64,000 nucleotides of DNA, taken from IMG/VR virus record IMGVR_UViG_3300025133_000026; one strand, given 5' to 3'. Below are positions 18,379-37,710 of this stretch, piece by piece (position 1 is the first letter of the stretch; each line of letters starts with the position of its first letter). Origin of the DNA: a virus. The notes beneath the pieces were generated by a model, which was not told the origin of the DNA, ran no database searches, and saw only the letters and a program-made list of their open reading frames with translations. Both the position numbers and the translations under genes were made by a program.

Positions 18379-18383
18379 CACAC

Positions 18384-18414
18384 GAGAAGGGGAGGGTAAC
18401 TCCTCCCCTTTCTC
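18384..18414 (+). terminator. Hairpin after the AAA ATPase gene
   Basis: gaga-aggggagg / cctcccct-t-tctc inverted repeat. Confidence 0.6.
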
Positions 18415-18445
18415 ATTCAAAACTACTACACAAGTAGGAGAATAA

Positions 18446-19657: not shown

Positions 19658-20098
19658 AGGCATATAGTACCAAAGAGGGAAACTTCTTTGGTATTCCTTA
19701 TACAAAAAGGCAATGGAATAGTTTTCAATATAAACAAACCATGTGTCCTGATTTCTCCTTATAGAAACCCAAAAAGTTACTAAAAAATATGACAGATTTT
19801 ACAGAAAACATTTATGCCTTTTTTCAATAAATCTCTGAACTCTTTAAAGGCTCATGTAAACAAGAACAGGGTAGCTAGAATTAAATCTCATATTCAAGAA
19901 AGTCATTTCTCTTTTTCTTCTTGGGCTGGAGATTATCGCGAAGACTGCTCGTTTCTCCTTGAGAAATAAAAAGTTTACAAAAACAACTTGATTATCAAAC
20001 AATGATGACAACAAATCATAATGATTTACCCGAAAAGAATGCAGATGAGCAAAGCTCTACTGCAAAAGAATAACAAACAAAGATAAACAGGAGTAAAT

Positions 20099-20359
20099 AT
20101 GACGTCACATCAAAGAAGTACACTTAGTCGTGTATCACGTCAGCGCTTTACCCAGCGTTATGGTTCAACCAGTTACAATATCATCAGCTCCTATGTTGCT
20201 TCAGACCGCAGCCTTAGCTCGCAAGAGCTTGCACAGACGCTTGGCGTCGCTGTCGGTACTGTTCGTACCACTCTAGGTAATTTTACCCGTGGTGCTTATG
20301 GCAGCATCGTTGATGACTGTAACTTTACTAGCCGTCACTTCCGTCCTGCTGTACGATAA
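20099..20359 (+). CDS. Small basic HTH-like DNA-binding protein
   Basis: SSQELAQTLGVAVGTVRTTLG helix-turn-helix pattern; AGGAG SD; CGT-rich codons. Confidence 0.65.
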   Translation: MTSHQRSTLSRVSRQRFTQRYGSTSYNIISSYVASDRSLSSQELAQTLGVAVGTVRTTLGNFTRGAYGSIVDDCNFTSRHFRPAVR

Positions 20360-20381
20360 ACAGCTTTCTCCAACCAAAAGA

Positions 20382-20409
20382 GAGGGGAACACAAATTTGT
20401 GTTCCCCTC
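20382..20409. terminator. Perfect 28-bp palindrome (terminator or operator)
   Basis: gaggggaacacaaa|tttgtgttcccctc is exactly self-complementary. Confidence 0.65.
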
Positions 20410-20423
20410 GCAGGTTTATAACA

Positions 20424-21734
20424 ATGGACTCTATTGCTTTTACCCCAACATATAATCTGAAATCTAGTAATCCTATTTCAAAAATGGGAAAAAAGTATCT
20501 TCAGTCAATTCATCAACTAAGTGCTTTGTATTGTGTAACTAAATCTCAAAGAATAGATGCAGAACTATTGAAAAATGAAATGTATAGTACTTTAATATAT
20601 CCAATATTATTTACAGTAACTACAGATACAGACATTTTTCATAGAGTGGTCGCTTCACAAAATGTACTTACAAAACTAATTAAAAATACAGAACAAGGAG
20701 ATATGTTTTTGAGTCTTCCTCCTTGGGTGAATGATTTAGAAGATCAAAGCGATGCCGAAATCCATGGGACAACTATTTTTACCCAAATTGAAGGGAAAAA
20801 TATAGTCTTCTCTCATCCAGAGACAGTTGTGGGCCTTGCAGATTTTGGGATACAACTTACAAAAGGATGTAATTCAAAATACTGGGCTCTTCCCATTTCT
20901 TTAAAGAAAGATTTTACAATACCTTTATCTATAGGAGAAACAGTAGCTGCATTTACAGAAGCAGAACACCAACAATTTCTTAAAATTTATCAACAAACTT
21001 TACAGGGAAATATATATGTTGGAAATCTTATTCATAATGCTGCTCCTAGTACTTTAAAATATTCTCTTTTTTCTATCAAAGAAATAGGATTATTTCTTGG
21101 GTATATCAATTATATACTTCTTTATTCAAGCAGTTACCCCACCCTTGGTGCTGAACTTCACAATGCATTGCTAGATTCGAAAAGTACTTCAGATCAGATC
21201 AATAATTTGTTTGATCAAGTTAATAAAAGAAAATCATGGATTTCCTCGATTGCTTCTTATCCTACAATTAAAACAAATATAATTCAAATTCAAAACATTG
21301 CAAAACAAGTATCGATAGCAAGTCTTTCTTACTCAGCCTGTATTGGACCTGTCAGTCTCCCTGAAAACTCAATGCAAACAAAAGAAAAGAAAGATATTAA
21401 ATATAATATTCAATTCAGAATTCTCGATAAAAATAGACTAAGGGTTCAGTGTAAAAAGACTGGTGGATACGCATCAGAAGCATCTTATATATTTGACCTG
21501 TCCTCATCTTCAATCCTCTTACAAGCAAAGAATCTTTCTGACTTTAAAGAAAGAGATGTTCAGTTACTTATTCAAGAAAAACAACTTCAACATCTTTCTT
21601 ATGAAAAATCTTCATTTTATAAAGGCAGTGACCAATATTATTGTAAAGGAATATATGACCCAGCAAAAGGTCTTCTTGTCAGTATCAACGGAACAAAAAC
21701 ATTAATTGCAAAAGCAACAGAACTACAATTCTAA
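20424..21734 (+). CDS. Large hypothetical protein
   Basis: ATG 20424 downstream of the palindrome; no motif recognised. Confidence 0.75.
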   Translation: MDSIAFTPTYNLKSSNPISKMGKKYLQSIHQLSALYCVTKSQRIDAELLKNEMYSTLIYPILFTVTTDTDIFHRVVASQNVLTKLIKNTEQGDMFLSLPPWVNDLEDQSDAEIHGTTIFTQIEGKNIVFSHPETVVGLADFGIQLTKGCNSKYWALPISLKKDFTIPLSIGETVAAFTEAEHQQFLKIYQQTLQGNIYVGNLIHNAAPSTLKYSLFSIKEIGLFLGYINYILLYSSSYPTLGAELHNALLDSKSTSDQINNLFDQVNKRKSWISSIASYPTIKTNIIQIQNIAKQVSIASLSYSACIGPVSLPENSMQTKEKKDIKYNIQFRILDKNRLRVQCKKTGGYASEASYIFDLSSSSILLQAKNLSDFKERDVQLLIQEKQLQHLSYEKSSFYKGSDQYYCKGIYDPAKGLLVSINGTKTLIAKATELQF

Positions 21735-21744
21735 AGGAAAATCA

Positions 21745-22506
21745 ATGAGTAGCGGATATCATTATGGCGGATCAGGCTTTGGACAAAATATTGGTTGGTG
21801 TTTTGACACCAAAAATATAGAATTTTGGGGCTCATCAAAATCAAAATTAGATGATGTGTTAGATTCCACAGGTGAAGACTTTGCAGATACTGACCTTATC
21901 ATTAACTGCACTGGGCTCCCCTATACTATTAAACCTTTTATTAAGTCTGCTCCGACATGGCTTTTAAAAGAAAACAAAACAGAAAAAAGTTTGTCTCTTC
22001 CGCAACCACATCAATTAGTTCTTGAATGGAAAGACTTTAGTCCTCCCCCTAGGCATTATGAAAACCTAGATTTTTGGAAAAATATAGTAACAAGAGCAGA
22101 AGAACATGGAATCAAACGAATTTTTGTTTGCTGCCAAGGAGGTAAAGGACGTACTGGGACTGCTCTTTCTGCTCTTATGATGGCGACAAACATGGCCGAG
22201 GATCCATTCCAGGCTATTAATCGAGTTAGAGAAAACTATACAGAAAAAGCAGTAGAAACAACTAGTCAAACTAAATATCTCATCAACTGTTTCTATCCAG
22301 AAGGAGAAGAAAGAACTGAAGTTTATGATTATTTAGATCAGTTAGAAAAACAACGCCGAGCAGCTGAAAAATCAAAGACAACCACTAAATGGAAGCGTCC
22401 ACAATCAAATCAAGCTATAGCCGATGATGATCTCTATGAGGATGTTCTTGATGATGATACAGAAGATTCTGTCTCTTTTAAAACGTCTTATTCCAGCTAC
22501 AAGTAA
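21745..22506 (+). CDS. Dual-specificity / protein-tyrosine phosphatase (CX5R)
   Basis: FVCCQGGKGRTG P-loop; WKDF acid loop; AVET.SQ; acidic tail. Confidence 0.9.
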   Translation: MSSGYHYGGSGFGQNIGWCFDTKNIEFWGSSKSKLDDVLDSTGEDFADTDLIINCTGLPYTIKPFIKSAPTWLLKENKTEKSLSLPQPHQLVLEWKDFSPPPRHYENLDFWKNIVTRAEEHGIKRIFVCCQGGKGRTGTALSALMMATNMAEDPFQAINRVRENYTEKAVETTSQTKYLINCFYPEGEERTEVYDYLDQLEKQRRAAEKSKTTTKWKRPQSNQAIADDDLYEDVLDDDTEDSVSFKTSYSSYK

Positions 22507-22534
22507 AGAAGAATTGCAACTAGGTGCAAAAACA

Positions 22535-24373
22535 ATGTCTTTTATTAAAAAGAAAAATATTGATGATGAGGTTCATCTATATGAAGAATATGCCCAAAAG
22601 GGAAATATCTTTCAGCCATCTAAAAATGTGAAAAAGATTAAAACTCAAAAAGCAAAAGGTGTCCTTGCTATTGAAGAGTATGCAATCCATGTTCAGTCTG
22701 TTAGGTGGAGCATTAACAGACATCTCTTGTTTGAGGCTGGGAGAGAATTTACTAAAGAAAATTTTAATTACCCTGTCTTTGTAAGACCGTGTCCTACAGT
22801 ACCCAGACATGGTTTTGTAGACTCAACAACATGCAAGACAGCCACACAATTAAACAAAATCTCTAAACAAACCCATAAGGTTGAACCTAAAGCAGAATTA
22901 CTTATTACCAAACCTATTCCTGCTACATATAGTGCGATCATCTCTGGTGATAGAATTACTTTTGGACCAGGAAATGATGGAGCTACTTCCGGCAAGCAAT
23001 GTCAATCTTTATATATCTCTGAGCCAGATTATCTCAGGCAACATATTATTAAAGACAATTGCGGGATAACCGAAGACCAGATTCCTTATTATGAATTAGT
23101 TTGTACTCAAAGAGAAACATTTCTTGTTCAAGTACGTGGGGGACCAGAGCTTCCTACATCAAAAAACTTTGTTCCGAATCAACTTATAGTAAACAAAGTA
23201 GTTAAAGCCGAGGGTGACCTTTTAAAATGGGAAACCATTGTAAGATCACTAAATCCTAAAACTACAGTTATTGATCACACTGAAGGAACCCTCTCCTCTC
23301 ATTACGCTGTTCACGCTATTCTAAACAACATTCCTATTTTTACTGAAAACTGTCCTCGGGTTGGTGACTTGGTTGTTCCTACCGAGGCTGCAAATGAAAT
23401 TACAGATGAAGAAAGAAAAGAATTTGCTAATGCTTACCTTTTCGGTCTCTCTAATATCAATACAGTTCTTAAAGAAAATAATGGGGGAGTAGATTTCTTT
23501 CGCCGCTCAACCAGACAGATTGTAGAGCTTGCTGTTGCATGTTTACATAACTTTAGTGCTCTCTATCGTCACAGAGACTGGAAGCTCTTAGGGACGACTC
23601 TAGGCTTGTTCGCAAGGGTTTGTTACTCTGTCTCTGCAGGAGAAATGAGACACGCTAACTCTAAAGCAAATAAAGAGTGGAAGAATATAAAAGCTTGTCA
23701 TACACATGAAGAGCGTGGGAAAACTTACCGTAAAAATTTATGTCTTAGTGCCCCAGATGTTCAAACAAGCATTGAAGATATTTGCAAAGGCTTTAGCATT
23801 AAAGGTTGGGAGTCAGGATTTGGAGGAAAAGCATGGGCTAATTGTACTTCTTCAATCATGGAGCTACACAATCATTGTGTTGACGGGGATATCAAAGAAG
23901 CAGTTGCTCAATTCAATAATGTTATTCATGAAGAACATAACGGTGGCCTATATCTTAACAAAGTAGTTAATTCTGGTATCTTTGATACTGCTGCTAGAAA
24001 CTCAACTCTGTTTATGTTTCAGAATTTAAAAAATAGTATTCATATTCTTGGTAGTCTTTATAATCAATCACAACCAAAAGAATATTGTCTTCGCAAACTT
24101 TTTATTTCAGCTTCTGCTCAACCAAAAACTCAACCAAAAAAGGCAGAGCCTACAGATATGACAATTAAAAGAACAGGAAAACAAACACTTCTTACTTCTC
24201 CCGATATTTGTATTGACCTTACTAATGATTACAGTTGGGATTTATGGAATACCACAGAAAAAGAAACTCCACTTTACTCTGGAAAGATTCCTTATTGGTA
24301 TACAAATAGCAAAGGAAAGAAAGTTATATCTAAAGCAAAGGTAACTAAACTATGCAAACAAAACAAGTCATAA
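22535..24373 (+). CDS. PEP-synthase/PPDK-like ATP-grasp plus phospho-His swivel domain fused to an unknown C-terminal domain
   Basis: TQKAKG, FVRPCP..PRHGF, ELLITKP and FLVQVRG resemble the PEPS ATP-grasp; GTLSSHYAVHA..NIP resembles the GGxTSHAAIxAR..GIP His domain. Confidence 0.6.
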   Translation: MSFIKKKNIDDEVHLYEEYAQKGNIFQPSKNVKKIKTQKAKGVLAIEEYAIHVQSVRWSINRHLLFEAGREFTKENFNYPVFVRPCPTVPRHGFVDSTTCKTATQLNKISKQTHKVEPKAELLITKPIPATYSAIISGDRITFGPGNDGATSGKQCQSLYISEPDYLRQHIIKDNCGITEDQIPYYELVCTQRETFLVQVRGGPELPTSKNFVPNQLIVNKVVKAEGDLLKWETIVRSLNPKTTVIDHTEGTLSSHYAVHAILNNIPIFTENCPRVGDLVVPTEAANEITDEERKEFANAYLFGLSNINTVLKENNGGVDFFRRSTRQIVELAVACLHNFSALYRHRDWKLLGTTLGLFARVCYSVSAGEMRHANSKANKEWKNIKACHTHEERGKTYRKNLCLSAPDVQTSIEDICKGFSIKGWESGFGGKAWANCTSSIMELHNHCVDGDIKEAVAQFNNVIHEEHNGGLYLNKVVNSGIFDTAARNSTLFMFQNLKNSIHILGSLYNQSQPKEYCLRKLFISASAQPKTQPKKAEPTDMTIKRTGKQTLLTSPDICIDLTNDYSWDLWNTTEKETPLYSGKIPYWYTNSKGKKVISKAKVTKLCKQNKS

Positions 24374-24442
24374 TAGACCTTATTAGAATAAACTATAAAC
24401 AATTTTCAACACTGTTAATTAAAGATTTAATTAGGAATAAAA

Positions 24443-24871
24443 ATGAATGTAAAGCAGGTTATTGTTGTAAGAACAAAATACCCCGATAATAAAGGGGGAA
24501 CACGAAAATTAAGAACGGGAAAACTTATGGCACAAGCCGCTCATGCTTCAATGAAAGTCTTTCTCGACATGATGGCTGAAACAACTTATGAAAACAGTCC
24601 ATACAGTTCCTTTTTTATGGAACTAAGCCACACAAGCCCTGTATATCACTGGCTGTCTGGTCCTTTTGCAAAGATCTGTTGTTATGTAGAGAGTGAAAAA
24701 GATCTATTGGACTTATATTACAGAGCCCGCGCAGCGGGCCTTCCTGCTAGTCTTATTAAAGACTCGGGCAAGACTGAATTCCATGGTGTTCCTACCAATA
24801 CATGTATTGCTATAGGACCAGCAGAGAATAAAGATATAGATAAGATCACTGGAGATTTGAAACTACTATGA
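24443..24871 (+). CDS. pth2: Peptidyl-tRNA hydrolase type 2
   Basis: KQVIVVR, GKLMAQAAHA, KICCYV.SE, IKDSGKTEF, TCIAIGP, IDKITGDLKLL. Confidence 0.95.
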   Translation: MNVKQVIVVRTKYPDNKGGTRKLRTGKLMAQAAHASMKVFLDMMAETTYENSPYSSFFMELSHTSPVYHWLSGPFAKICCYVESEKDLLDLYYRARAAGLPASLIKDSGKTEFHGVPTNTCIAIGPAENKDIDKITGDLKLL

Positions 24872-25125
24872 AAGAAAATTGGAGAACAGACCCTCTTCCC
24901 AAAAGAAGGTTTTTCTTCTGGGGAAAGGGAGAAATAGATGGTGTCTTTTGTCACTCTATCTTTATAAGAGAACAAGACTTTCATCCTGATGATCTCAAGC
25001 TTCCATATCGTCGAAGAAGAATGGTCTGGGGGCATAGAAGAATAGATATAATCTCTTGTCGTTGGAGTAGGGGAGAGCCTTACAGAATGAGGGGATGGTC
25101 TGAAATAGAAGAACCGCAGGATTAG
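24868..25125 (+). CDS. Hypothetical protein
   Basis: ATGA overlap with pth2. Confidence 0.55.
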   Translation: MKENWRTDPLPKRRFFFWGKGEIDGVFCHSIFIREQDFHPDDLKLPYRRRRMVWGHRRIDIISCRWSRGEPYRMRGWSEIEEPQD

Positions 25126-25126
25126 A

Positions 25127-25360
25127 ATGATATTAAAAAATATTATCTTAGATCTCTTGGAAAACAAGAGTAGACTTAAAAAACATAATCAATTACGTTC
25201 TCGAATAGAAAACTTTACTCCACCTGGTCAGCCAAATTATAGTTGTTCATTTCAGTTTGGTGGTTCACAATTAAGATGGAAGTGTGGTTGTGAACGAACC
25301 ATCATGAACAAAACACACTATAACGAATTATGTCAGACACACCTAAATCAACTGAAGTAA
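25127..25360 (+). CDS. Hypothetical Cys-containing protein
   Basis: Small ORF in the array. Confidence 0.55.
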   Translation: MILKNIILDLLENKSRLKKHNQLRSRIENFTPPGQPNYSCSFQFGGSQLRWKCGCERTIMNKTHYNELCQTHLNQLK

Positions 25361-25623
25361 AAGCTTACAAGAGACCACGCCCTACACGTAGACAACTCAA
25401 GAGAGAAATACAGATAGGACGTGAACATATTGGAGAATTAGCAAGTTGGCAAAAAGGACGTGAACAACGTATAGCTATTTGTCTTGGTCTTTCAAAGAAT
25501 GCAACTCTGCCAATGATTGAAAAGGAGGCGCGGAGATTATACACTATCTCTCAGAAACAAGCACAGGGCACTTCTCTTCTTCCTAAAAAGACTAAAAAGA
25601 AAAAGACAAAATCCAAAGTATAA
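25330..25623 (+). CDS. Hypothetical basic protein
   Basis: K/R-rich small ORF. Confidence 0.6.
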   Translation: MSDTPKSTEVKAYKRPRPTRRQLKREIQIGREHIGELASWQKGREQRIAICLGLSKNATLPMIEKEARRLYTISQKQAQGTSLLPKKTKKKKTKSKV

Positions 25624-25670
25624 TATTCTTGTAGCCTTCAGGGCTCATAGACATAAAGGAGTAACTAGCT

Positions 25671-26549
25671 TTGGTTCAAGAGACTCTTCATACCGTTCAC
25701 GTTGATCCCAACACATTGAATAATCTTTATAACAAGAATGCTGTTAAGATCAGTGATGTTAATTCTAACTATCCAATCCTTTCATCAGAAATTCTTTATC
25801 CTAATGCACAGCTTATCCTTAAGCATGAATCACAAAGTGCATTGGCTGTTATTGATCCCGCTTGCAATTTTATAGAGCTATGCTTTAGTAATAATGCACC
25901 GTTTGGCATTAGTCCTCGCAACACAGAACAAACAGTTCTAATGCATCAATTACAAAATGATGATATTAAGTTACAGATTATTGCAGGAAAAGCTGGCTGC
26001 GGCAAGTCTCTGCTTGCAATGGCTTCAGGCCTTAGTAAAGTTCTAGAAGATAATCTGTATAAAAGACTAGTTATTACTAAGCCTACTTATCAAGTGGGAG
26101 AAAAGGGTGCCTTCGCCGCAGTCCCCGGTAATATTCAAGAAAAGTATGAACCTTATCTTATGAACTTCATGATGACTCTTGAAGAGTTAGGCATGGAGAG
26201 AGCTTATCTAAATATTATTAAAGAGAAAAGATTAATAGAATTTGTACCTCTGCAATTAATGAGAGGAATGTCTTTTAAAAACTGCATGGTAGTCGCTGAT
26301 GAAGTACAGTCTCTATCAAGACATGAGATGCAAACTCTTTGCTCAAGAATTGGAGCTAACTCCAAGCTTGTTTTGCTTGGTGATCCAAGACAAATAGATA
26401 GAAGCATATCATTTAATGAAACAGGCCTTGCCCGTTTAATCAAATCTGACAGAATAAAATATTCTGATCTATGTGCTATGACTCATCTAACAAAGAATGA
26501 AAGAAGTAGACTTAGTACATTATTAGATGATGTTCTTTTAGAAGACTAA
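25671..26549 (+). CDS. phoH: PhoH-like ATPase
   Basis: GKAGCGKS, RGMSF, DEVQSL, LLGDPRQID, ERSRL. Confidence 0.92.
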   Translation: MVQETLHTVHVDPNTLNNLYNKNAVKISDVNSNYPILSSEILYPNAQLILKHESQSALAVIDPACNFIELCFSNNAPFGISPRNTEQTVLMHQLQNDDIKLQIIAGKAGCGKSLLAMASGLSKVLEDNLYKRLVITKPTYQVGEKGAFAAVPGNIQEKYEPYLMNFMMTLEELGMERAYLNIIKEKRLIEFVPLQLMRGMSFKNCMVVADEVQSLSRHEMQTLCSRIGANSKLVLLGDPRQIDRSISFNETGLARLIKSDRIKYSDLCAMTHLTKNERSRLSTLLDDVLLED

Positions 26550-26599
26550 TCTTTTTCAAAAGATTATGGGAAAGGAAGAGGGTAAAACCTCTCCCTGTT

Positions 26600-26938
26600 T
26601 TGTTTATGATTATAAAATCTTACACTGATTCAGAATGTGTTGTCCTTTGTATCTTCTGTACTATAACTTATCGTTTAATAAGTAATTTTATTTTAGAGTG
26701 TTCTCTTGATCATGGCAATGGGGCTCATGATTATATAATCATGAGGCCTGGCGATAATATTATTCCAGGAGATCTTATTGCCTCAAACTGGTTATACCCA
26801 CTCACCAAGTGGCAAGAAAATCTTAAGAAAGAAATAATAGAAATTGAATATAAATATATAACTATAGGGAAAGAGTTTCCTAAGATACTTCAAATACTGC
26901 AGGAAAGGATTAAACGATGGGATACATCAGAGAATTAG
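26600..26938 (+). CDS. Hypothetical protein, tandem family A
   Basis: IIEIEYKYITIGKEFPKILQIL. Confidence 0.65.
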   Translation: MFMIIKSYTDSECVVLCIFCTITYRLISNFILECSLDHGNGAHDYIIMRPGDNIIPGDLIASNWLYPLTKWQENLKKEIIEIEYKYITIGKEFPKILQILQERIKRWDTSEN

Positions 26939-27237
26939 ACCTGCCACCTGGCAGTAAATATAGATGTATATACGGTGTTCATCTTAAAATTAAAAGAAAG
27001 AGGGAGCACTATACTGGATGGACTTTTTATGCTTCTGCAGACCATCTCAACAGATGGAGACTAACACCTACTCTAGGGTATGGAAAAACATATTTGTCTT
27101 CCGAAGCACAAGAAGAATTTGTAAAAATTCTCCTTAACCTAGAGTATGAGCACCTAACTTCTGGTGATAAGACTTACTTCCCTAATCTATATCCAGTACT
27201 GAGAAAATTAGAAAATGATGCAGATAAAAAAGGTTGA
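26917..27237 (+). CDS. Hypothetical protein, tandem family A
   Basis: LLNLEYEHLTSGDKTYFPNLYPVL. Confidence 0.7.
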   Translation: MGYIRELDLPPGSKYRCIYGVHLKIKRKREHYTGWTFYASADHLNRWRLTPTLGYGKTYLSSEAQEEFVKILLNLEYEHLTSGDKTYFPNLYPVLRKLENDADKKG

Positions 27238-27466
27238 AGATATCTATGAATGGAAACCTATCCATATTCATATAGAAAAAAATAGTTATCAACTGTCAAC
27301 AGAGTGGTCTCGAAATGAATCGGTAACAAACCTCTCGCCTTTTTATCGAAAAGATTTATTAAATTGCTTGCAAAACTTACAATACAAAGCTATAATAACT
27401 GAAGATAAAGAGTTCTTTCCAGAACTCTTACCACTATTAAAAGCATTAGAAGAAATAGATCAATAA
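27215..27466 (+). CDS. Hypothetical protein, tandem family A
   Basis: LQNLQYKAIITEDKEFFPELLPLL. Confidence 0.7.
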   Translation: MMQIKKVEDIYEWKPIHIHIEKNSYQLSTEWSRNESVTNLSPFYRKDLLNCLQNLQYKAIITEDKEFFPELLPLLKALEEIDQ

Positions 27467-27469
27467 TTA

Positions 27470-27796
27470 ATGACTGAAAAATATATTCTCAAAGTAAAAA
27501 CCTGGGCCCCAATTAGTTTTCATAAAAATGAAGATGATAGAATCATTGCTTTCGCAGACAAGCCGCGCAAAAAATATATTCTATCAGAAAAACCACTCTA
27601 TCTTTCAGGGTTTGACGGCTGGGCTGATCATTGGTTATGCAAAACAAAAGAAACTTTAGAAGATTCAATATATGAGTCTCTTCTTTGTGGCAATAAAGAA
27701 CAATTAGATTTAATAGAAAGACTTTTATTTCTTACCAAGAAAGCAATTTATTTTCAAACTATTAGTAATCGAAAAAATATATATCAAAATGAATAG
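27470..27796 (+). CDS. Hypothetical protein with the shared motif
   Basis: LEDSIYESLLCGNKEQLDLIERLL. Confidence 0.65.
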   Translation: MTEKYILKVKTWAPISFHKNEDDRIIAFADKPRKKYILSEKPLYLSGFDGWADHWLCKTKETLEDSIYESLLCGNKEQLDLIERLLFLTKKAIYFQTISNRKNIYQNE

Positions 27797-28037
27797 AGAA
27801 GAATTAATCCAAAGTATAGAACACTCCTTAAACTCATCTGGTCTATCAGACAGAGAGAAAGTACGTGCACTTAGCAATGTCTTGATTGACTATGGATGTG
27901 CACTTGAGTCTATATCTGAACCAGTTACCACCACCACACTTAAAAAGATAGAGCAAGACTATTATCAGTCCCCAACCTTGGGTAAAGCTCTTATCATGCA
28001 AGGAAGCCTCATGCTTACATGGGGTGCAACACATTAA
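27789..28037 (+). CDS. Hypothetical protein
   Basis: Overlapping ORF in the array. Confidence 0.65.
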   Translation: MNREELIQSIEHSLNSSGLSDREKVRALSNVLIDYGCALESISEPVTTTTLKKIEQDYYQSPTLGKALIMQGSLMLTWGATH

Positions 28038-28066
28038 ACACAAATAAAAATAACAGGATAAATCAT

Positions 28067-28594
28067 ATGGAAACATTGTATATCAACCGTCCCAATCAGT
28101 ACGCTATTTACAAAGGCATTAAAGGAAATAACGGAGCCATTCAATTTAACTTGATTCCGTTTGACCCCGCGCGTGCAAACGTAGATGATGATCGCAAACT
28201 GCAAGAAAAAGACAAAAAAGGTTGGTTGCTTATCGATGCAGCCAGTGCTTCTGGACCCAATCAATATGATTGGAGCACAGATATTAAATTCTCTATGTCT
28301 GAAACAGATATTGGCAAGTTTCTTGTTGGTATCGGTCGAATGGGGAGTGAAGGAGACACTTTAGTTAATATCTTTCACAAACATGAAAAGACAGGGGCCA
28401 CTAAGAAACTAATCATTACACAAGGCAGAGTGTATCAAGGTAATCCAACCTGGATGTTTGCTCTTCTTTGTACAGACAGTACAGGCACTCGAAATGTCAA
28501 TGTACCTATTAGCAAAGACGAAATGCTTGTTCTGAAGCTTCTGCTTGAAGCAGCAGTTCCCTCTATTCTTGGATGGAGTGCTCGTAGTGTCTAA
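28067..28594 (+). CDS. Whirly-family ssDNA-binding protein
   Basis: YAIYKG, GWLL..A.A.G..QYDWS...FS.S.T.IG, FH, VPISKDE..VL, P.ILGW. These match plant Whirly blocks in order. Confidence 0.75.
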   Translation: METLYINRPNQYAIYKGIKGNNGAIQFNLIPFDPARANVDDDRKLQEKDKKGWLLIDAASASGPNQYDWSTDIKFSMSETDIGKFLVGIGRMGSEGDTLVNIFHKHEKTGATKKLIITQGRVYQGNPTWMFALLCTDSTGTRNVNVPISKDEMLVLKLLLEAAVPSILGWSARSV

Positions 28595-28937
28595 GCCAAT
28601 TGTAAATGCACATATCTTCGCTCAACTTTTTGACGAAATGGCTTGGGGTGGTCTAGTCTTACTAGAAAGTTCTGAATTTGAAAAACAACAAAGATTAGAA
28701 TTTACACTTCCCTTACCCGCTAACGCTGATCCTTCTTATGCTGAAGAGTCAGTTGTTTATGAGGCTAGCAAAATGCTTCCCATGAGATTAAAATGGCCTG
28801 ACTATATTGTCACAAATTTTATTGTCTCTTCTGAAGAAGTAAAGAAAAGAGTTGAATCTAACGAACACATAAGTAAAAATATGAAACAATATGCCTACCA
28901 AACAACCGTCAGAAAAAACGATAGCACTGGAGAATGA
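28587..28937 (+). CDS. Hypothetical protein
   Basis: GTG 28587 overlaps the Whirly stop. Confidence 0.6.
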   Translation: MSKPIVNAHIFAQLFDEMAWGGLVLLESSEFEKQQRLEFTLPLPANADPSYAEESVVYEASKMLPMRLKWPDYIVTNFIVSSEEVKKRVESNEHISKNMKQYAYQTTVRKNDSTGE

Positions 28938-28947
28938 AAAGGGAGAG

Positions 28948-29274
28948 ATGCTTAACCTCTTAGATTTGGTCTCACAAATCTTAGACAAAAGCACATCATC
29001 TCAAATAGATGAAAAATCTCAACTTCTTTCAGCAATTAGTGCAACTCAAATTGTTAAAGATATGGGACAACGAGGATCAGATGAGGTTATTGCCTTATAT
29101 AAAATCTATCCAAACTTGATACCTTTACTGGCTGGTGTATTCCAGACAGGGCTTAAACTTGGCCTATTCATTGCACGAAAAAACATTAAGATTACATTAC
29201 AGGAATCTAATGCAGAAAGTGATCAGTCAAGTAGCCAAACTAATAGTTCCAATAGTCATACCGATTCTAATTGA
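28948..29274 (+). CDS. Hypothetical protein
   Basis: ATG 28948 after GGGAG. Confidence 0.6.
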   Translation: MLNLLDLVSQILDKSTSSQIDEKSQLLSAISATQIVKDMGQRGSDEVIALYKIYPNLIPLLAGVFQTGLKLGLFIARKNIKITLQESNAESDQSSSQTNSSNSHTDSN

Positions 29275-29345
29275 GATGACTCTTAAAGAGTTCTTCGGAT
29301 TATCTGAAGACAAAATAAAACAACATGTAGAAAACAGGAGAAAAA

Positions 29346-29687
29346 ATGAGTGATTTGAAAGTAACCAATGTAAAGTTCTGGCCGCGCACCGGTAACGGTG
29401 CCCTCAAGGCTTTTGCCGATGTAGAGTTTAACGGAGAGATGACCGTCAAGGGATTCTCTGTGTTCTCTGGTCAGAACGGCATCTGGGCGAAGGCCCCTTC
29501 CGACAGAGTAGAAAAGAATGGTGAGACGCAGTATTACCCGCGTATCATGTTCCGTTCTACCGGCGAGGAGAAGAGTACTCATCCAGTGCTCAAGGCCATT
29601 GTCGATGCTTATACTGGTGGTTCGTCTGCCCAGACTAAGTCTACCCCTCAACCGGCAGATGCAGGTCTTGGTAGCGATCCCTGGTAA
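29346..29687 (+). CDS. spoVG: SpoVG-family nucleic-acid-binding protein
   Basis: VTNVKF, LKAFADVEF, VKGFSV..GQNG.W...PS, YYP; SSB-like acidic DPW tail. Confidence 0.85.
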   Translation: MSDLKVTNVKFWPRTGNGALKAFADVEFNGEMTVKGFSVFSGQNGIWAKAPSDRVEKNGETQYYPRIMFRSTGEEKSTHPVLKAIVDAYTGGSSAQTKSTPQPADAGLGSDPW

Positions 29688-29705
29688 ACATAGAGTAACT
29701 CTCAA

Positions 29706-29740
29706 AACAAGGGGCGGGGAGAAATCTCCGCCCCTTTGTT
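29706..29740 (+). terminator. Rho-independent terminator
   Basis: aacaa-ggggcg..gaga / tctc-cgcccc-tttgtt hairpin after spoVG. Confidence 0.75.
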
Positions 29741-29756
29741 ATTGAAAAGAGAACGC

Positions 29757-29915
29757 GTGGACAAATTCAAAAATATAGAGCCCAACCTTATTGAATTGTT
29801 TAAATTTATTCGTCAGTTCTATCCTAAATTAGAGCAAGAAATTGTATACAAAGCTCTTCTTACCGACAAGAAGAGTAAATTTGTACAATATATTCTAGAA
29901 GAAGGAGAAGAATAG
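29757..29915 (+). CDS. Uncalled 52-aa ORF with the shared motif
   Basis: GTG 29757 to TAG 29915: MDKFKNIEPNLIELFKFIRQFYPKLEQEIVYKALLTDKKSKFVQYILEEGEE. It abuts the next start. Confidence 0.6.
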   Translation: MDKFKNIEPNLIELFKFIRQFYPKLEQEIVYKALLTDKKSKFVQYILEEGEE

Positions 29916-30233
29916 GTGATAAACTGGGGAAGTCCTTCCAATATAGTTTTATCCAAGATTGATTTAAGACCTGGATTCTCCTGGAGACTTACTTACAAAT
30001 GTTGGGGTTGGCATATACACTTCTTTCATAAAAGCAATGGTACTTGGTATTGGCAACACAATCCAGACATACTTAGCTACGCACGACCATTAACAATTCC
30101 CCCCGAGCCTGTACGTCGAGAGGAATTTAAAAATTGGATAAAAGATAAACTTTATATTCAGTTAATAACCCCAACAAAAAACAATGAACTTATAGAGGTT
30201 TTAGAAACAATGCTTGTTGAAGCAGAGGATTGA
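29916..30233 (+). CDS. Hypothetical protein, tandem family B
   Basis: W.LT..C.G.H....KS..W; FKNWIKDKLYIQLIT..ELIEVLE. Confidence 0.65.
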   Translation: MINWGSPSNIVLSKIDLRPGFSWRLTYKCWGWHIHFFHKSNGTWYWQHNPDILSYARPLTIPPEPVRREEFKNWIKDKLYIQLITPTKNNELIEVLETMLVEAED

Positions 30234-30576
30234 GGTGGGTTTGCCACCACCATATAAAATGAAGCTAGAGAAAGTTAAAAACACTTGGGTTTTAACTTTT
30301 CGTACATTTGGAAACCATTGTATTTCTATTAACAAATCACAAGAAGGATGGTTCTTCGAGACTATCGGCAGAGGTCTTGCCATAACAGATTCTATCGACA
30401 AGCTTCTTCTTCGAACATATCTATCTCATTATCCATATCTATATAGATTTAAAGCATGGCTAGAAGAAGAACTCTATACAGCATGGATGACAGATAATCC
30501 CGAACACTTAGAGATTTTGGAAATTCTATTAAATAATACTAAAAAGCATATACAGCGGTGGGAAACAAAACTATGA
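30214..30576 (+). CDS. Hypothetical protein, tandem family B
   Basis: WVLT....G.H....KS..W; FKAWLEEELYTAWMT..EHLEILE. Confidence 0.65.
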   Translation: MLKQRIEVGLPPPYKMKLEKVKNTWVLTFRTFGNHCISINKSQEGWFFETIGRGLAITDSIDKLLLRTYLSHYPYLYRFKAWLEEELYTAWMTDNPEHLEILEILLNNTKKHIQRWETKL

Positions 30577-31079
30577 AAGAAACACTTGAAACCCTTAAAA
30601 AAGGGAAAGAAAAACTTAAAGAATTCTCTACTCTTATTGGGACTCACTATCTTGTTGATGGGAAGACTCCCGATCAGTGGAGACAAGAATTTACTATTAA
30701 CATAGGAAAAGACCCGAACATTGAAGAAGTGCGCCGGACTTCTGCCGCTCTTGTTCGGCTCATCAATATTGCATCTTTCTATAAAGCTAATGCTCAATTA
30801 GTCTTTGATGGTATTAGTCATGGTTCTCACGACCAGTACCTCAGTGCTTTTGAAAAGCAAGTAGACAAATATAAGGTTGATGGTAAACGACTTCCATCAC
30901 AGAAAACACTTGAGTCTCTAGCAGAAAGCTCAATGAAAGATCTTAACTCTGCTAAAGCTAATGCTGGAATGAAGCTTCGCTTCTGGAAAGATATTGTCCA
31001 AGGTCTTGTTGAGCAAAGGAAAAGCTTAGAAATGATTATGTGGTCAATCAATATTGAAATGAAGAAAGAAACATACTGA
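30573..31079 (+). CDS. Coiled-coil protein (possible recombination mediator)
   Basis: All-helical. The functional guess is weak. Confidence 0.6.
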   Translation: MKETLETLKKGKEKLKEFSTLIGTHYLVDGKTPDQWRQEFTINIGKDPNIEEVRRTSAALVRLINIASFYKANAQLVFDGISHGSHDQYLSAFEKQVDKYKVDGKRLPSQKTLESLAESSMKDLNSAKANAGMKLRFWKDIVQGLVEQRKSLEMIMWSINIEMKKETY

Positions 31080-31081
31080 TT

Positions 31082-31450
31082 TTGTTCAATATGTCTGTTA
31101 CTTACTCATGGCCGCCACCATCACGAGTTAAATACTATTTTTTCTTTGAAGAAAAAGAACTCTCTTTAAAGAGAGTTCTTATTATCTCTTCCTCTAGAAA
31201 ACCTGCTTATTTATGTAAAGTAAGCTCTCTTATCTATGGAGGAAAGAATCGCTGGCGTGCGCCTGAAGATGTTGTGTGGAGAAATCTTGAAGAAAGTCTT
31301 GCATTGAAAACATCTTTTTATTGCAAAGCTCTTCAAGAGGCAGCAAAAGAAAAATATTACAAGCTCATTATGAATAATTTAGATAATTGGATACTTCAAC
31401 CTCTTCAAGAATTGATAGATATAGACCTTAGTCAGATTGTGAGAGACTAA
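31082..31450 (+). CDS. Hypothetical protein with the shared motif
   Basis: AKEKYYKLIMNN. Confidence 0.6.
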   Translation: MFNMSVTYSWPPPSRVKYYFFFEEKELSLKRVLIISSSRKPAYLCKVSSLIYGGKNRWRAPEDVVWRNLEESLALKTSFYCKALQEAAKEKYYKLIMNNLDNWILQPLQELIDIDLSQIVRD

Positions 31451-31493
31451 TGGGTGCTCCTATAGTCAAACCACTTACATCCCATATACCCAT

Positions 31494-31580
31494 ATGATGA
31501 AAGAAAAAGAAGATACATTAGAAATTTCTATTCTTACAGCTTTGTATAAAGCTTTACTAGAAGTTCAGCATACAGTATAA
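31494..31580 (+). CDS. Possible 28-aa micro-ORF consisting largely of the shared motif
   Basis: MMKEKEDTLEISILTALYKALLEVQHTV*. Confidence 0.35.
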   Translation: MMKEKEDTLEISILTALYKALLEVQHTV

Positions 31581-31601
31581 TAAGCACCCCAAGGAGAATA
31601 A

Positions 31602-32240
31602 ATGCCAACAACTTTTCTATTACTATTGAGCTGTACTCAAGACATTTTCGATACAGCAGCAGAAGAAGACGGTTGGCTCGGAGGATCACCGGAGACTCCT
31701 ATCATTGTAGACTTTACAGAATCTGAAGTAGAAGATACCGGGGTGGTTAAAGAAAACAACCTAACTGAAATAATAGAAGAAAATTGTTATGTTCAAATGG
31801 GTACAAAACTTTGTGACTTCACCTTGACAAATCAGATGGGAACAGATATTACTCTTTCCGATTATTCAGGATCTTATATTCTATTAGATTTCTCTGCAAT
31901 GTGGTGCGGACCTTGTCAAAGTGCAGCAGCTGCAGCCCAGGATCTTCAAAATAATTATTCTGACAAGAATGTTAAATACATTATTGTCTTACTTGAGGAT
32001 TATTACAGTCAAGAGTTAGACTTAAAAGATCTTAATGATTGGTCAGACACATTTGGCCTAACAACTATAAATACATTGGGCGGATCAAGAGCATTGCTTC
32101 AGTCAAGCGGAGGACCATATCCTCTTTCATCCTGGCCCACCTTTTACTATATTAATAAGGAAGGAATTGTAGAGTATTACCACTCTGGATATTCAGAAGA
32201 AGCTCTACAACATAACCTCGATTACTTAACCTCGCAATAA
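31602..32240 (+). CDS. TlpA-like thioredoxin-fold lipoprotein
   Basis: Lipobox LLSC; acidic linker; DFTL.NQ.G; LLDFSAMWCGPC; WPTFYYINKEG. Confidence 0.88.
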   Translation: MPTTFLLLLSCTQDIFDTAAEEDGWLGGSPETPIIVDFTESEVEDTGVVKENNLTEIIEENCYVQMGTKLCDFTLTNQMGTDITLSDYSGSYILLDFSAMWCGPCQSAAAAAQDLQNNYSDKNVKYIIVLLEDYYSQELDLKDLNDWSDTFGLTTINTLGGSRALLQSSGGPYPLSSWPTFYYINKEGIVEYYHSGYSEEALQHNLDYLTSQ

Positions 32241-32259
32241 GTCTCTATACAGGCTCGAG

Positions 32260-34668
32260 ATGACCTATACAGAAGAGCAAGCCAAGCAGGCTTGCTTAGA
32301 ATACTTTAATAATGATTTTTTAGCTGCAGATACTGTTGTTAAAAAATATCTACTCAGAAACCTTAATGGTGAACTATTAGAGGTCTCTCCAACAGACATG
32401 CATCGGCGTTTGGCTAAAGAATTTGCACGAATTGAAAGTAATTACCCTAGTCCTCTTTCAGAAGAAGAGATTCTTTCACAACTTGAAAGATTTTCTAAGA
32501 TTATTCCTCAAGGTTCTCCCATGTATGGGATTGGAAATCCAAGACCTGTGTCTTTGAGTAATTGTGTTGTGATTGATAGTCCTAAAGATAATATCTCTGC
32601 AATCTTTGAAGGTGCACGAGATATTGCGAACCTAAGCAAAAGACGATGTGGAATTGGTGTAGACATTAGTCAGCTACGACCAGACGGGACTGTTGTTAAC
32701 AATGCAGCACAGACGACTACTGGAGCTTGGAGCTTTGCTGATCTTTACAGCTATACGCTAAGAAAGATTGGACAAAAAGGCCGGCGAGGTGCTGGTATGA
32801 TCTCTATAGATGTACGACATCCAGATATAGAGAAGTTTATTACCATGAAAAAGGATCTAACTAAAGTTACTGGCGCTAATATTAGCATTAGAATCAGAGA
32901 TGATTTTATGGAGGCAGTAGAAGCCGACACTGACTTTACTTTACGTTGGCCTGTGGATAGTAAAAACCCAAGCATTACAAGAATAGTAAAAGCAAAAGAG
33001 CTATGGAGTTTAATCACAACAACTGCCACGACTACAGCAGAGCCTGGACTAATGATGTGGGATAACATCATCAATCATCTTCCAGCTCACTGTTATAAAG
33101 GATTTGAAACATTAACAACCAACCCTTGCGGCGAGGTCCCCTTGTCTGCTTATGATAGTTGCCGTTTGATCACTATAAATCTAACTTCTTTTGTCCAGAA
33201 TCCCTATACTTCACAGGCTAATTTTAATATAGATGATTTTAAAAACACAGTTCGCATTGCTATGCGTCTTTGTGATGATCTAGTAGATCTTGAGCTTGAA
33301 AAACTTGAATTGATTTATCAATCTGCAGATACAGAAGATGAAAAAGTTTTATGGCAACAACTCAGAAATTCTTGTGAAAAAGGACGCCGCACTGGCTTAG
33401 GAACAACAGGCCTTGCAGATGCACTAGCTATGCTTAACCTTGAATATGGGTCAACAAATAGTCTTTATCATATAGAGAATCTTTATGAAATATTTAAGTT
33501 AGAAGCTTACAAAGAATCAGCAAGTCTTGCACAAGAAAGAGGAGCATTTCCCGTTTGGAAACCAGGCGTAGAAGAAGACTGTAAGTTCTTTGATCCTTTT
33601 CCTTTGGGGCTTGTTGAAAAGATGGAAGCTCATGGACGCCGAAACATATCTATCTTAACAAATGCTCCAACAGGATCATGTTCTATCTTAGCTCAATGTT
33701 CATCAGGAATAGAGCCTATCTACAGATTAGAGTACACACGTAGAAAGAAATTATCTCATGACGAACTAGAAAATAGTTCAGATTTTATCGACAAAGATGG
33801 AGAGAAGTGGAAAGAGTTTACTGTCTTCCATCATGCCTATAATGAATATAGAAAACTAACAAAGAAAACTACTTCTTCAAAGTTTTTCGTTACCTCTGAT
33901 CAAATAGATTGGAGTGCTCGTATTGACGTACAGGCAGCCATACAGCGGCATATTGATCACAGCATTAGCTCGACCATCAATCTACCCAAAGGAACACCTG
34001 TAGACGTCGTTAAAGAGCTTTATATGAAAGCCTGGAAGGAAGGCCTCAAGGGAGTTACCGTTTATGTAGAGGGGTCTCGAGCAGGTGTTCTGGTATCGAA
34101 AGATATTCAATCAACCAAAGACTTGATTACAGAAACAACAGCTCCTAAACGACCACAAGAACTTCCTTGTGAAATCCATCATAGATCTGTGAAGGGCGAG
34201 AAGTGGACAATCTTACTTGGTCTATTAGACGATAAACCTTATGAAGTATTTGCCGGACCTGCAGAAAATATTGATATTGCCACTAAATTTACAACTGGAA
34301 CAATCTTTAAATATCCAAGAAAAACAATTAACTCAAGATATGATTTAGAGTATGGGGAGAACGGCGGGACAACAAAGATAAAGAACATTGTTAAGTGGTT
34401 TGAAAACGATGACTATGGAACAATGAGTCGTCTTGTCAGCATGAATTTAAGACATGGTGTACCTATCCATTACATCTGTGAACAATTACAGAAAGATCCC
34501 AACGGAGATCTTCTCAGTTTTAATAAAGTATTAGGACGTGTTCTCAAAACTCATATTCCAGACGGAACAGACAGAGATAGAATCTGTGGCGAATGTAATA
34601 ACGAAGGCCTGACTTACCAAGAAGGCTGTTTGACATGTACTTCTTGCGGCTACACTAAGTGTAATTAA
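32260..34668 (+). CDS. nrdJ: Class II (B12-dependent) ribonucleotide reductase
   Basis: PQGSP, LSNC, TNPCGEVPL, GRRTGLG, APTGS, ISSTINL; C-terminal Zn ribbon. Confidence 0.95.
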   Translation: MTYTEEQAKQACLEYFNNDFLAADTVVKKYLLRNLNGELLEVSPTDMHRRLAKEFARIESNYPSPLSEEEILSQLERFSKIIPQGSPMYGIGNPRPVSLSNCVVIDSPKDNISAIFEGARDIANLSKRRCGIGVDISQLRPDGTVVNNAAQTTTGAWSFADLYSYTLRKIGQKGRRGAGMISIDVRHPDIEKFITMKKDLTKVTGANISIRIRDDFMEAVEADTDFTLRWPVDSKNPSITRIVKAKELWSLITTTATTTAEPGLMMWDNIINHLPAHCYKGFETLTTNPCGEVPLSAYDSCRLITINLTSFVQNPYTSQANFNIDDFKNTVRIAMRLCDDLVDLELEKLELIYQSADTEDEKVLWQQLRNSCEKGRRTGLGTTGLADALAMLNLEYGSTNSLYHIENLYEIFKLEAYKESASLAQERGAFPVWKPGVEEDCKFFDPFPLGLVEKMEAHGRRNISILTNAPTGSCSILAQCSSGIEPIYRLEYTRRKKLSHDELENSSDFIDKDGEKWKEFTVFHHAYNEYRKLTKKTTSSKFFVTSDQIDWSARIDVQAAIQRHIDHSISSTINLPKGTPVDVVKELYMKAWKEGLKGVTVYVEGSRAGVLVSKDIQSTKDLITETTAPKRPQELPCEIHHRSVKGEKWTILLGLLDDKPYEVFAGPAENIDIATKFTTGTIFKYPRKTINSRYDLEYGENGGTTKIKNIVKWFENDDYGTMSRLVSMNLRHGVPIHYICEQLQKDPNGDLLSFNKVLGRVLKTHIPDGTDRDRICGECNNEGLTYQEGCLTCTSCGYTKCN

Positions 34669-34973
34669 TGTCTCAAGATGAATATTCAGAGATGGGCAAA
34701 CAAATACTAAGAGCCGTTTTCACCTCAGCCGTTTTTGACTACAATAAATATGTTGTCAGAAAGCGCCTTAAGCCCAAAGAAGCATTAGCTTTCTCTACTG
34801 CAAGTCGTCTGTTATTTGACGATGATTATCGAATATTGTATGGGGACTGGGAGCTTTCTCTCGAAGAGCTTCTTTCTGTTATTAATGATAACAAAGAAGT
34901 AGATCTCGAAATAGTTAGAGAAAATATTATAAACAAGGCTTATCAGAGAAAATCAAGAAAAAAGAAAACATGA
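34668..34973 (+). CDS. Hypothetical protein
   Basis: TAATG overlap with nrdJ. Confidence 0.65.
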   Translation: MSQDEYSEMGKQILRAVFTSAVFDYNKYVVRKRLKPKEALAFSTASRLLFDDDYRILYGDWELSLEELLSVINDNKEVDLEIVRENIINKAYQRKSRKKKT

Positions 34974-35539
34974 TTCCTCCAGTAAAAATTCTTAAAATTA
35001 AAGACGAGACTGAACTAATCTTAGAGCTTGGCTCAACTGAAATTAGTTTTGTAAATGGATGTTTTGAATTACCTCATATGGGGTATGCAACATTCTTTTG
35101 TGAAGTCTTAGCTCAAGCGAACATGATGTCTCTTACTTTTAAAATAACAGAATTGAGAAATGCCAAATATACATTTGGACATACCCTACTGATAGCTGTC
35201 AATGACGACGAGTCTTTCAGAAAAGTTCGAGGAACAAAACCACTTTACAAGTGGGATGAAAGAGTTGATACATTAATATCTTGTCTTCAGGGACTTACTT
35301 CTAGGAATACTTTGTTTTCAGATATTGATAAAATTATTTTCTTTAAAATGGAAGAGACTAATCCCTGCAAATTACTTAGAGTAGTTCAGCCAGGTTATAT
35401 CTATAAAGGCTCAGAATATAAATATAAACAAATTCCTGAGAAAAAAGTTATCAAAAGTTATGGTGGAGAAATTAATTGGATTAAAAATCCAGTCACAATA
35501 CATGGCTCTGATATTAAAAAAAGAATTCTAGAAGGATAA
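34970..35539 (+). CDS. Cytidylyltransferase-fold enzyme, HldC/RfaE domain II (heptose-1-P adenylyltransferase)-like
   Basis: FVNGCFE..H.GY, IAVNDDES, KP....ER, ETNP..L....P....KG.EY. Confidence 0.75.
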   Translation: MIPPVKILKIKDETELILELGSTEISFVNGCFELPHMGYATFFCEVLAQANMMSLTFKITELRNAKYTFGHTLLIAVNDDESFRKVRGTKPLYKWDERVDTLISCLQGLTSRNTLFSDIDKIIFFKMEETNPCKLLRVVQPGYIYKGSEYKYKQIPEKKVIKSYGGEINWIKNPVTIHGSDIKKRILEG

Positions 35540-35541
35540 AA

Positions 35542-36588
35542 TTGGAACAACAGAATACCTACAAGAAAAAAGACCCAACTCAAATTGATGCCCTCTTAGC
35601 TAGACTAACAAAGTCTATGGGCAAGGGAACTATTTTCAGACAAACAGAAGAAAGAGTTTCCGCCTGGCCCGCAATCAGTACTACTTCACTATCTTTAGAC
35701 CATGCATTAGGTATTGGAGGAGTTCCCCAAGGAAGATTTGTTGAACTTCTGGGGATGGAGAGTAGTGGCAAAACCACAATGGCGTTACATATGATTGCTG
35801 AAGCTCAAAAATTAGGAGCAACAGTCGCTTTCGTTGACGCAGAGCATGCTCTTGACCCCAACTATGCTGCAGCTCTTGGGGTAGATATGGACAACATGTT
35901 AATCTCTCAGCCCAATACTGGAGAAGAAGCACTGAATATAGTTGATGAGTTAGTTCGTTCTCAATTGATTGATCTTGTTGTTGTAGACTCTGTCGCCGCC
36001 CTTGTACCGAAGGCAGAACTGGAAGGCGGGATGGATGAACAGCAAATGGGGCTACAAGCAAGACTCATGAGTAAAGCTTGTCGAAAGCTTACACCACTTG
36101 CTCATAAAAACAACGTAACCGTTCTTTGGATTAATCAATACAGAAGCAAGATAGGAGTCTTCTTCGGCTCTCCTCATGTTGGGGCAGGAGGAAATGCATT
36201 GAAATACTACTGTTCAGTTCGAATGAAAGTCAGTCGAACAAAGACAGAGAAAACCCAGGGAGAAGCGACTCATAACAGGACTAAGGTAGAAATTATTAAA
36301 AACAAAATGGCACCACCATACAAGCAAGCACAGTTTGACATTCGCTTTGGCGTTGGCATAGATCAAGTTGGAGAACTTATTGATATTGGTGTCTTGCATA
36401 AAATTATTAGAAAAGCAGGTCCTTACTTTTATCTAGAAGCGGAGAACGTTAAATTAGGTCAAGGGAAAACTAATTCCATTAACTTCTTAAAGGAAAATCC
36501 TGAAATACAAACTCAATTGAAAACAGCTGTCATAGATGCTCTCTATCCCCAAGAGGAGGACGAGGAGATTATGGATGGCCTGGAGTAG
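35542..36588 (+). CDS. recA: RecA recombinase
   Basis: GMESSGKTT, FVDAEHALDP, SQPNTGEEAL, VVDSVAAL, GLQARLMS, KNKMAPP; TTG start. Confidence 0.97.
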   Translation: MEQQNTYKKKDPTQIDALLARLTKSMGKGTIFRQTEERVSAWPAISTTSLSLDHALGIGGVPQGRFVELLGMESSGKTTMALHMIAEAQKLGATVAFVDAEHALDPNYAAALGVDMDNMLISQPNTGEEALNIVDELVRSQLIDLVVVDSVAALVPKAELEGGMDEQQMGLQARLMSKACRKLTPLAHKNNVTVLWINQYRSKIGVFFGSPHVGAGGNALKYYCSVRMKVSRTKTEKTQGEATHNRTKVEIIKNKMAPPYKQAQFDIRFGVGIDQVGELIDIGVLHKIIRKAGPYFYLEAENVKLGQGKTNSINFLKENPEIQTQLKTAVIDALYPQEEDEEIMDGLE

Positions 36589-37707: not shown

Positions 37708-37710
37708 ATT

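Follow-up and report, generated by a model that had tools for sequence, protein, structure and literature searches.

A plant-type Whirly-family protein encoded beside a conserved partner gene in a large uncultured tailed phage

Results

The Whirly locus and its genomic surroundings

The gene described here was found in IMG/VR virus record IMGVR_UViG_3300025133_000026, which is 151,482 bp long and estimated to be 85% complete. Our analysis centred on a 64,000-nucleotide stretch of this record (G000:C1:55162-119161, minus strand of the record), referred to below as the window. The window has a GC content of ~38% and is densely coding, with nearly all open reading frames (ORFs) of at least 150 aa located on one strand; its principal features are collected in Table 1. 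The record represents a large uncultured tailed phage that belongs to a very poorly known lineage. Megablast of window positions 20000-40000 against 50,697 GenBank phage records returned no match, and the best matches to its DnaE and RecA proteins, which are ~34% and ~52% identical, respectively, are spread over many hosts.

Table 1. Features of the Whirly locus, with related features located elsewhere in the genome and in related loci. Positions refer to the window unless another locus or contig is named.
Feature	Position	Strand	Remarks
Protein-tyrosine/dual-specificity phosphatase	21706-22506		
PTH2-type peptidyl-tRNA hydrolase	24443-24871		upstream of Whirly
PhoH	25671		upstream of Whirly
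Putative transcription unit	26600-29736		holds the Whirly and SpoVG-like genes
Conserved partner gene (82 aa, pI 5.2, four helices)	27789..28037	+	homologues upstream of Whirly in relatives
Ribosome-binding site AGGA	28055..28058	+	read from the sequence; 8 nt 5' of ATG 28067
Whirly-family gene (P0001), 175 aa	28067..28594	+	Pfam, PDB sequence, AlphaFold2 and Foldseek matches
Small ORF 3' of Whirly	28638..28937	+	no family match; weak homologue at the same position in L007
SpoVG-like nucleic-acid-binding protein	29346..29687	+	Pfam SpoVG, E 8.1e-8; same putative transcription unit as Whirly
Terminator-like hairpin (12-bp stem, 8 G-C pairs)	29709..29736	+	consensus scan alone; 3' of SpoVG
Thioredoxin-fold protein	31602		
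Ribonucleotide reductase, C-terminal TSCPD domain	32260-34668		
Bacterial-type RecA	35542..36588	+	Pfam RecA, E 2.2e-107
DnaE-type Pol III alpha	38771		
Two ClpP paralogues, 31% identical	52267-52830 and 62011-62718		
Primase-helicase	54895		
Canonical SSB	G000:C1:143423-143812		outside the window; PF00436, E 1.5e-37
Partner homologue	L003 7695-7997		
Partner homologue	L007 8739-9020		
Partner homologues	L010-L018		just upstream of each Whirly gene
Partner homologue	L027 2072-2311		partner-side search
Partner homologue	L031 2501-2740		partner-side search

The putative transcription unit that holds the Whirly and SpoVG-like genes is closed by the terminator-like hairpin. An alternative in-frame ATG for the Whirly ORF is present at position 28019, but we favour the start at 28067 because the AGGA motif is positioned 8 nt upstream and the homologues start at the equivalent position in every case. 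The start of the small ORF that follows the Whirly gene is uncertain, as use of a TTG at position 28545 would make the two genes overlap.

Several further features of the genome were recorded. Small orphan genes surround the Whirly gene, and in two places within the window small paralogous ORFs lie next to each other in overlapping pairs (26917-27466, 38% identical; 46660-47419, 31% identical). At positions 17194-19657 the gene for an AAA ATPase (phrog_1297) precedes a second gene, and this pair is kept in the related loci L007 and L003; the L007 homologue of the second gene matches DUF2201_N/DUF2201 in Pfam and an HNH endonuclease in PHROGs. Homologues of ClpP are also encoded ~1 kb 5' of Whirly in L004-L006. 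The other half of the genome (G000:C1:1-55000, loci L019-L021) is read from the opposite strand and contains giant ORFs of 1319, 1820 and 2088 aa. Eight of nine further large ORFs in that half had no match in PHROGs, and the presumed structural module is therefore very divergent.

The phage protein is a Whirly homologue in sequence and fold

The initial annotation had read the ORF at 28067..28594 as a plant-type Whirly protein in a phage, and this assignment is confirmed: the IMG/VR virus record encodes a genuine Whirly-family protein (P0001) whose homology, at the levels of both sequence and fold, is far beyond chance. The Pfam family Whirly (PF08536) was matched with an E-value of 4.7e-11 and a score of 43.1 bits, as compared to a curated cut-off of 23. 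The match spans profile positions 24-134 of 136, and PF08536 was the sole Pfam family recovered for P0001 at E-values up to 10. A six-frame search of the genome with the same profile gave 43.4 bits at the Whirly locus. When P0001 was compared with all PDB sequences using phmmer, the matches below E 0.001 were plant Whirly chains only (AtWHY3 and AtWHY2, 1.7e-8; AtWHY1, 5.6e-7; potato PBF-2 p24, 7.9e-7; StWHY2, ~9e-4), and all solved plant Whirly chains were matched at the sequence level. A search of PHROGs assigned P0001 to no family, the best match being a ‘tail protein’ with an E-value of 0.14.

The structure of P0001 was modeled with AlphaFold2 using 139 homologues as input (pLDDT 94.6, pTM 0.87). 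The model consists of two beta-beta-beta-beta-alpha repeats, the first formed by strands 12-15, 24-30, 53-63 and 66-77 and helix 79-90, and the second by strands 98-105, 112-123, 126-137 and 140-148 and helix 150-167. When the model was compared with the PDB using Foldseek, ranks 1-16 were all occupied by plant Whirly structures, with E-values of 1e-9 to 4e-8 and TM-scores of 0.64-0.79, and PUR-alpha and the trypanosome proteins MRP1 and MRP2 were ranked far below them.

Sequence blocks shared with plant Whirly proteins

The five sequence blocks that the initial annotation had quoted from plant organellar Whirly proteins were all found, in order, and can be aligned with Cuscuta WHY1 and with Whirly proteins of the green lineage column for column. 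The direct alignment contained Cuscuta WHY1 (P0215), two green-lineage-type proteins (P0136 and P0085) and a Picozoa protein (P0123). Twelve residues are invariant in the phage and eukaryotic proteins (Y15, K16, G17, G52, F75, H104, G125, P147, E152, P165, G169 and W170) and the Y67-D68-W69 triplet is nearly so; conservation also extends to the LGW block and the C-terminal helix. More broadly, P0001 shares PF08536, the fold and 21-28% sequence identity with the plant organellar proteins of known structure (StWHY1/PBF-2 p24, StWHY2 and AtWHY1-3; PDB 1l3a, 3n1h, 4koo, 4kop and 4koq), the common blocks being YKG, YDW, FH, VP.S..E and LGW.

The phage protein differs from its plant counterparts at both termini and in one well-known motif. 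Plant and algal Whirly proteins have 80-100 extra N-terminal residues, whereas in P0001 the YKG block is preceded by 14 residues and there is no transit peptide. At the other end, P0001 terminates in GWSARSV, five residues past LGW, and is without the acidic/aromatic tail of the plant proteins. The YKG-KAAL segment of plants corresponds to YKG-IKGN-NGAIQF in the phage; YKG is kept and is followed by a four-residue insertion, so that a literal KGKAAL motif is absent. Potato WHY2 requires the second lysine of this motif to assemble into 24-mers, and the position of this lysine is not conserved in the phage protein. KGKAAL is also missing from green algae and Marchantia, and therefore marks the Whirly proteins of higher plants and not the family as a whole.

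A large and mostly viral family

When 1.84 billion cluster representatives were searched exhaustively with HMMER, 211 clusters were recovered at E <= 0.001, 46 of them at E <= 1e-10. Nearly all of these family members are tailless proteins of 150-200 aa that start ~10 residues ahead of YKG, with most phage-type relatives ending at GW or within a few residues of it. Those that were looked up are all metagenomic, and are mostly singleton clusters without names. One match, a 2215-aa protein from an endosymbiont (P0101), is an ankyrin-repeat protein and was set aside as doubtful. Look-alike clusters in the ESM Atlas (score 0.93) are mostly from Uroviricota, and some have been automatically named ‘Whirly transcription factor domain-containing protein’. 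The best match in BFVD is UniProt A0A6J5NR37 (E 1.2e-10, TM 0.68/0.83, 30% identity), which belongs to the same phage branch as P0001 and carries the name ‘Whirly transcription factor [uncultured Caudovirales phage]’ by automatic assignment only.

The family appears to be restricted to uncultured phages, as tblastn with three diverse members (P0001, P0044 and P0020) found no match among the 50,697 GenBank phage records. Pattern scans based on two alignments found no relative in the genomes of 185,579 prokaryote species, which is weak evidence of absence because the patterns are narrow. The plant literature that was searched, reviews included, calls Whirly plant-specific or plant-unique. The description of the family as classically plant-specific in the initial annotation is thus faithful to that literature, but not to the databases, as UniProt/BFVD and the ESM Atlas hold automatically named phage Whirly proteins. 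In the literature searched, no paper was found that describes or studies these automatically annotated proteins, and the phage papers that use the name ‘Whirly’ do so for fold-level likeness without sequence similarity (ChmC and the sensor domains of the Shedu and Menshen systems). Phage Whirly proteins are therefore not new to databases, and appear to be unstudied in the literature searched.

A conserved partner gene and the wider neighbourhood

A small gene is found upstream of Whirly in all 14 phage records examined, and in 13 of them the two genes are adjacent. Its homologue was located directly 5' of Whirly in each of the 11 related loci that were read. Searching from the side of the partner uncovered two more virus records, both of which also contain Whirly (adjacent in one, 2 kb apart in L031). 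The partner proteins have in common a motif that is roughly GNLGY.LGASI.G ... YY..PT.G.ALMLQG...T.W, and are acidic in 10 of 12 cases. The AlphaFold2 model of the partner contains four helices (pLDDT 92.9); the protein has no match in Pfam or PHROGs, and Foldseek found none in the PDB at E <= 1. A candidate PDB fold match by VIA was rejected, since the best Z-score, 6.7, does not rise above the noise for helical proteins. No gene for a Rad52-like annealase was seen at this locus. The plant Whirly genes differ from the phage gene in this respect, as we know of no plant counterpart of the partner.

Downstream of Whirly, two arrangements are seen. A SpoVG gene follows within ~1-1.4 kb in the window, in L007 and in L003. 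In other relatives an RNase H-like gene (Pfam RVT_3/RNase_H) comes right after Whirly, and in several of these it is followed by a DNA_pol_A_exo1 3'-5' exonuclease gene; in L010-L016 the RNase H-like and exonuclease genes are located 0.5-1.9 kb downstream of Whirly. Small ORFs of 113-114 aa are also present downstream of Whirly in L010-L016, and their products appear OB-fold-like by eye and have no Pfam match. Upstream, inspection by eye identified a small zinc-ribbon-like protein with two CxxC pairs just before the partner in L003, L012, L013 and L015-L018. This protein is encoded ~0.3-0.5 kb upstream of Whirly in the relatives, and none was seen in the window.

A bacterial-type RecA is a constant companion of Whirly. 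It is encoded on the same strand, 6-15 kb downstream, in all 11 Whirly-bearing IMG/VR records tested, although these records are not independent because the gene order is common to them, and shared ancestry, as opposed to a functional tie, may explain the linkage. In the window RecA is positioned 7 kb downstream of Whirly, outside of the putative transcription unit. The RecA genes of two relatives are interrupted. In the record behind L018 (G010:C1:17105-18940) both halves are contained in one 690-aa open frame, and the interruption looks like an intein. In the record behind L016/L005 (G003:C1:34475-35829) the halves occupy separate frames with ~570 bp between them, a pattern suggestive of an intron or of the insertion of a homing element.

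The genome encodes a separate canonical SSB

The initial annotation had noted that no canonical SSB was seen in the replication region, and this holds for the window. It does not hold for the genome: a six-frame search of the complete record with PF00436 located one canonical SSB, ~52 kb from Whirly. The gene is an intact ORF of 129 aa whose product ends in ...EDIPSDEIPF, the classical acidic docking tip. P0001 has neither of the corresponding features, as it gave no PF00436 match in Pfam at E-values up to 10 and has no ...IPF tip. The Whirly fold and the OB-fold of the SSB are unrelated, and the true SSB of the phage is a separate gene, although both proteins are presumed to coat ssDNA as tetramers. 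No SSB was found in 10 related virus records, an absence that carries no weight because these records are 14-61% complete and none of those checked reaches 52 kb upstream of Whirly. The green-lineage-type proteins P0136 and P0085, both from metagenomes, end in ...DPPPF and ...ETPPF, respectively, which recalls the ...IPF tip of bacterial SSBs.

Phylogeny

A maximum-likelihood tree was constructed from 141 sequences; it is unrooted, has no outgroup and contains many unsupported branches. P0001 is placed in a well-supported 10-member clade with few relatives (SH-aLRT 97). The Picozoa protein groups with Cuscuta WHY1 and the green-lineage-type proteins in a small clade of 8-13 rows with support values of 86-90, and when the tree is midpoint-rooted this eukaryotic clade is nested among ~130 phage-type cluster representatives. 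Eukaryotes are under-sampled in the tree, as the sequence set was gathered with a phage query.

Discussion

We propose, with a probability of about one half, that the phage Whirly protein is an accessory ssDNA binder that serves RecA-dependent recombination, repair or recombination-dependent replication, and that its partner may regulate or load it. By comparison with its relatives, we infer that P0001 may form homotetramers, bind ssDNA and cooperate with RecA, and that the partner may have some role in this process. In plants, the Whirly tetramer binds ssDNA on its beta-sheet edges. By homology, the phage protein would probably also bind as a homotetramer, on the edges of its beta-sheets and without sequence preference. 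The small acidic partner would be made together with it and may act as a regulator or loader. Whirly would then coat resected or displaced strands and aid the phage RecA in recombination-dependent replication and repair, while the replication fork would be left to the canonical SSB.

This accessory role is the most economical explanation because the phage has both a tailed SSB and a RecA, and plant Whirly has been reported to aid RecA. Specifically, a 2026 preprint describes that plant Whirly potentiates strand exchange by the bacterial-type RecAs of organelles, which canonical mitochondrial SSBs do not. The trio of RecA, SSB and Whirly is present in both plant organelles and the phage. The accessory role is also consistent with the DNA-metabolism genes of the neighbourhood, which include those for ribonucleotide reductase, a DnaE-type polymerase and a primase-helicase in the window, and for RNase H-like proteins and a 3'-5' exonuclease in the relatives.

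Several observations argue against an accessory role in recombination. The RecA linkage may have been inherited along with the shared gene order, and RecA itself is 7 kb from Whirly and beyond the end of the putative transcription unit. In this phage, the nearest conserved downstream neighbour of Whirly is SpoVG, and members of the SpoVG family bind both DNA and RNA. The KGKAAL motif is broken, and the lysine on which 24-mers depend is not conserved in position. Finally, proteins with the Whirly fold can prefer RNA, as exemplified by phage ChmC. ChmC (PhiPA3 gp61 and PhiKZ gp67), from the nucleus-forming jumbo phages, is a homotetrameric nucleic-acid binder with a fold of the Whirly/PUR class and a preference for RNA. 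It has three-stranded repeats, lacks any detectable similarity in sequence to known proteins and has a disordered, N/G-rich C-terminal tail that drives the formation of condensates.

A second reading, which we consider unlikely, is that P0001 acts chiefly in RNA binding or gene expression, comparable to ChmC, to trypanosome MRP1/MRP2 and to the RNA side of maize WHY1. RNA is bound by the Whirly fold in both ChmC and MRP1/2, SpoVG is encoded in one putative transcription unit with Whirly, and peptidyl-tRNA hydrolase and PhoH genes are located upstream. However, the ssDNA-binding Whirly proteins of plants are far closer to P0001 (E ~1e-9, TM 0.64-0.79) than are MRP1/2 (E ~7e-4, TM ~0.55), and in the relatives Whirly is flanked by genes for DNA enzymes. 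Compared with the published description of ChmC, P0001 is set apart by its four-stranded repeats, by the lack of a disordered C-terminal tail and by its membership of the Whirly family at the sequence level.

We regard as less probable still a function in host takeover or counter-defence, in which P0001 would compact or coat DNA in a nucleoid-like manner, or hide the ssDNA of the phage from host sensors, with the partner acting as its regulator. Plant WHIRLY1 compacts nucleoids, Whirly-like domains are the proposed ssDNA sensors of the Shedu and Menshen defence systems, and the gene is sited among small orphan genes of the kind typical of early regions. However, it is conserved together with replication and recombination genes, and not with variable accessory genes.

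The suggestion in the initial annotation that the protein may act as the SSB of the phage, replacing the OB-fold protein as the main replicative binder, is not borne out: a homologue of ssDNA binders is indeed encoded in the half of the genome that holds the DNA-metabolism genes, and neither the window nor the 10 related fragments contains an SSB, but with an intact ...DEIPF-tipped SSB encoded ~52 kb away, relatives too incomplete for their lack of one to be informative, and no tail on P0001 with which to dock partner proteins, this role is very improbable.

The accessory role in RecA-dependent processes can be joined to a broader and more speculative scenario. Whirly and its partner might constitute a two-part recombination-mediator module for the phage RecA, and this phage lineage might be the source from which the green lineage acquired its organellar Whirly, in the manner of the phage-type organellar RNA polymerase and the Twinkle helicase. 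We consider the combined proposal doubtful. The initial annotation had held that a phage homologue bears on the origin of organellar Whirly, and that bearing is real, although tempered by a tree that is unrooted and poorly supported. After midpoint rooting, the eukaryotic proteins are nested among phage-type sequences. The tree is thus compatible with a phage origin of plant Whirly without establishing it.

P0001 is one more example of a kind of protein already present in databases, and adds to an established family without amounting to a new type of system. The partner gene is a new handle on this family, with a possible role in regulating or loading the phage Whirly protein, and the conserved partner and the constant company of RecA are useful leads. 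Because the Whirly family has a large, mostly viral branch, its mechanism becomes open to study in a far simpler system, in which tetramer and higher-order assembly, the protection of ssDNA and the stimulation of RecA could be addressed. Moreover, the origin of plant Whirly becomes a testable question of phage-to-eukaryote transfer.
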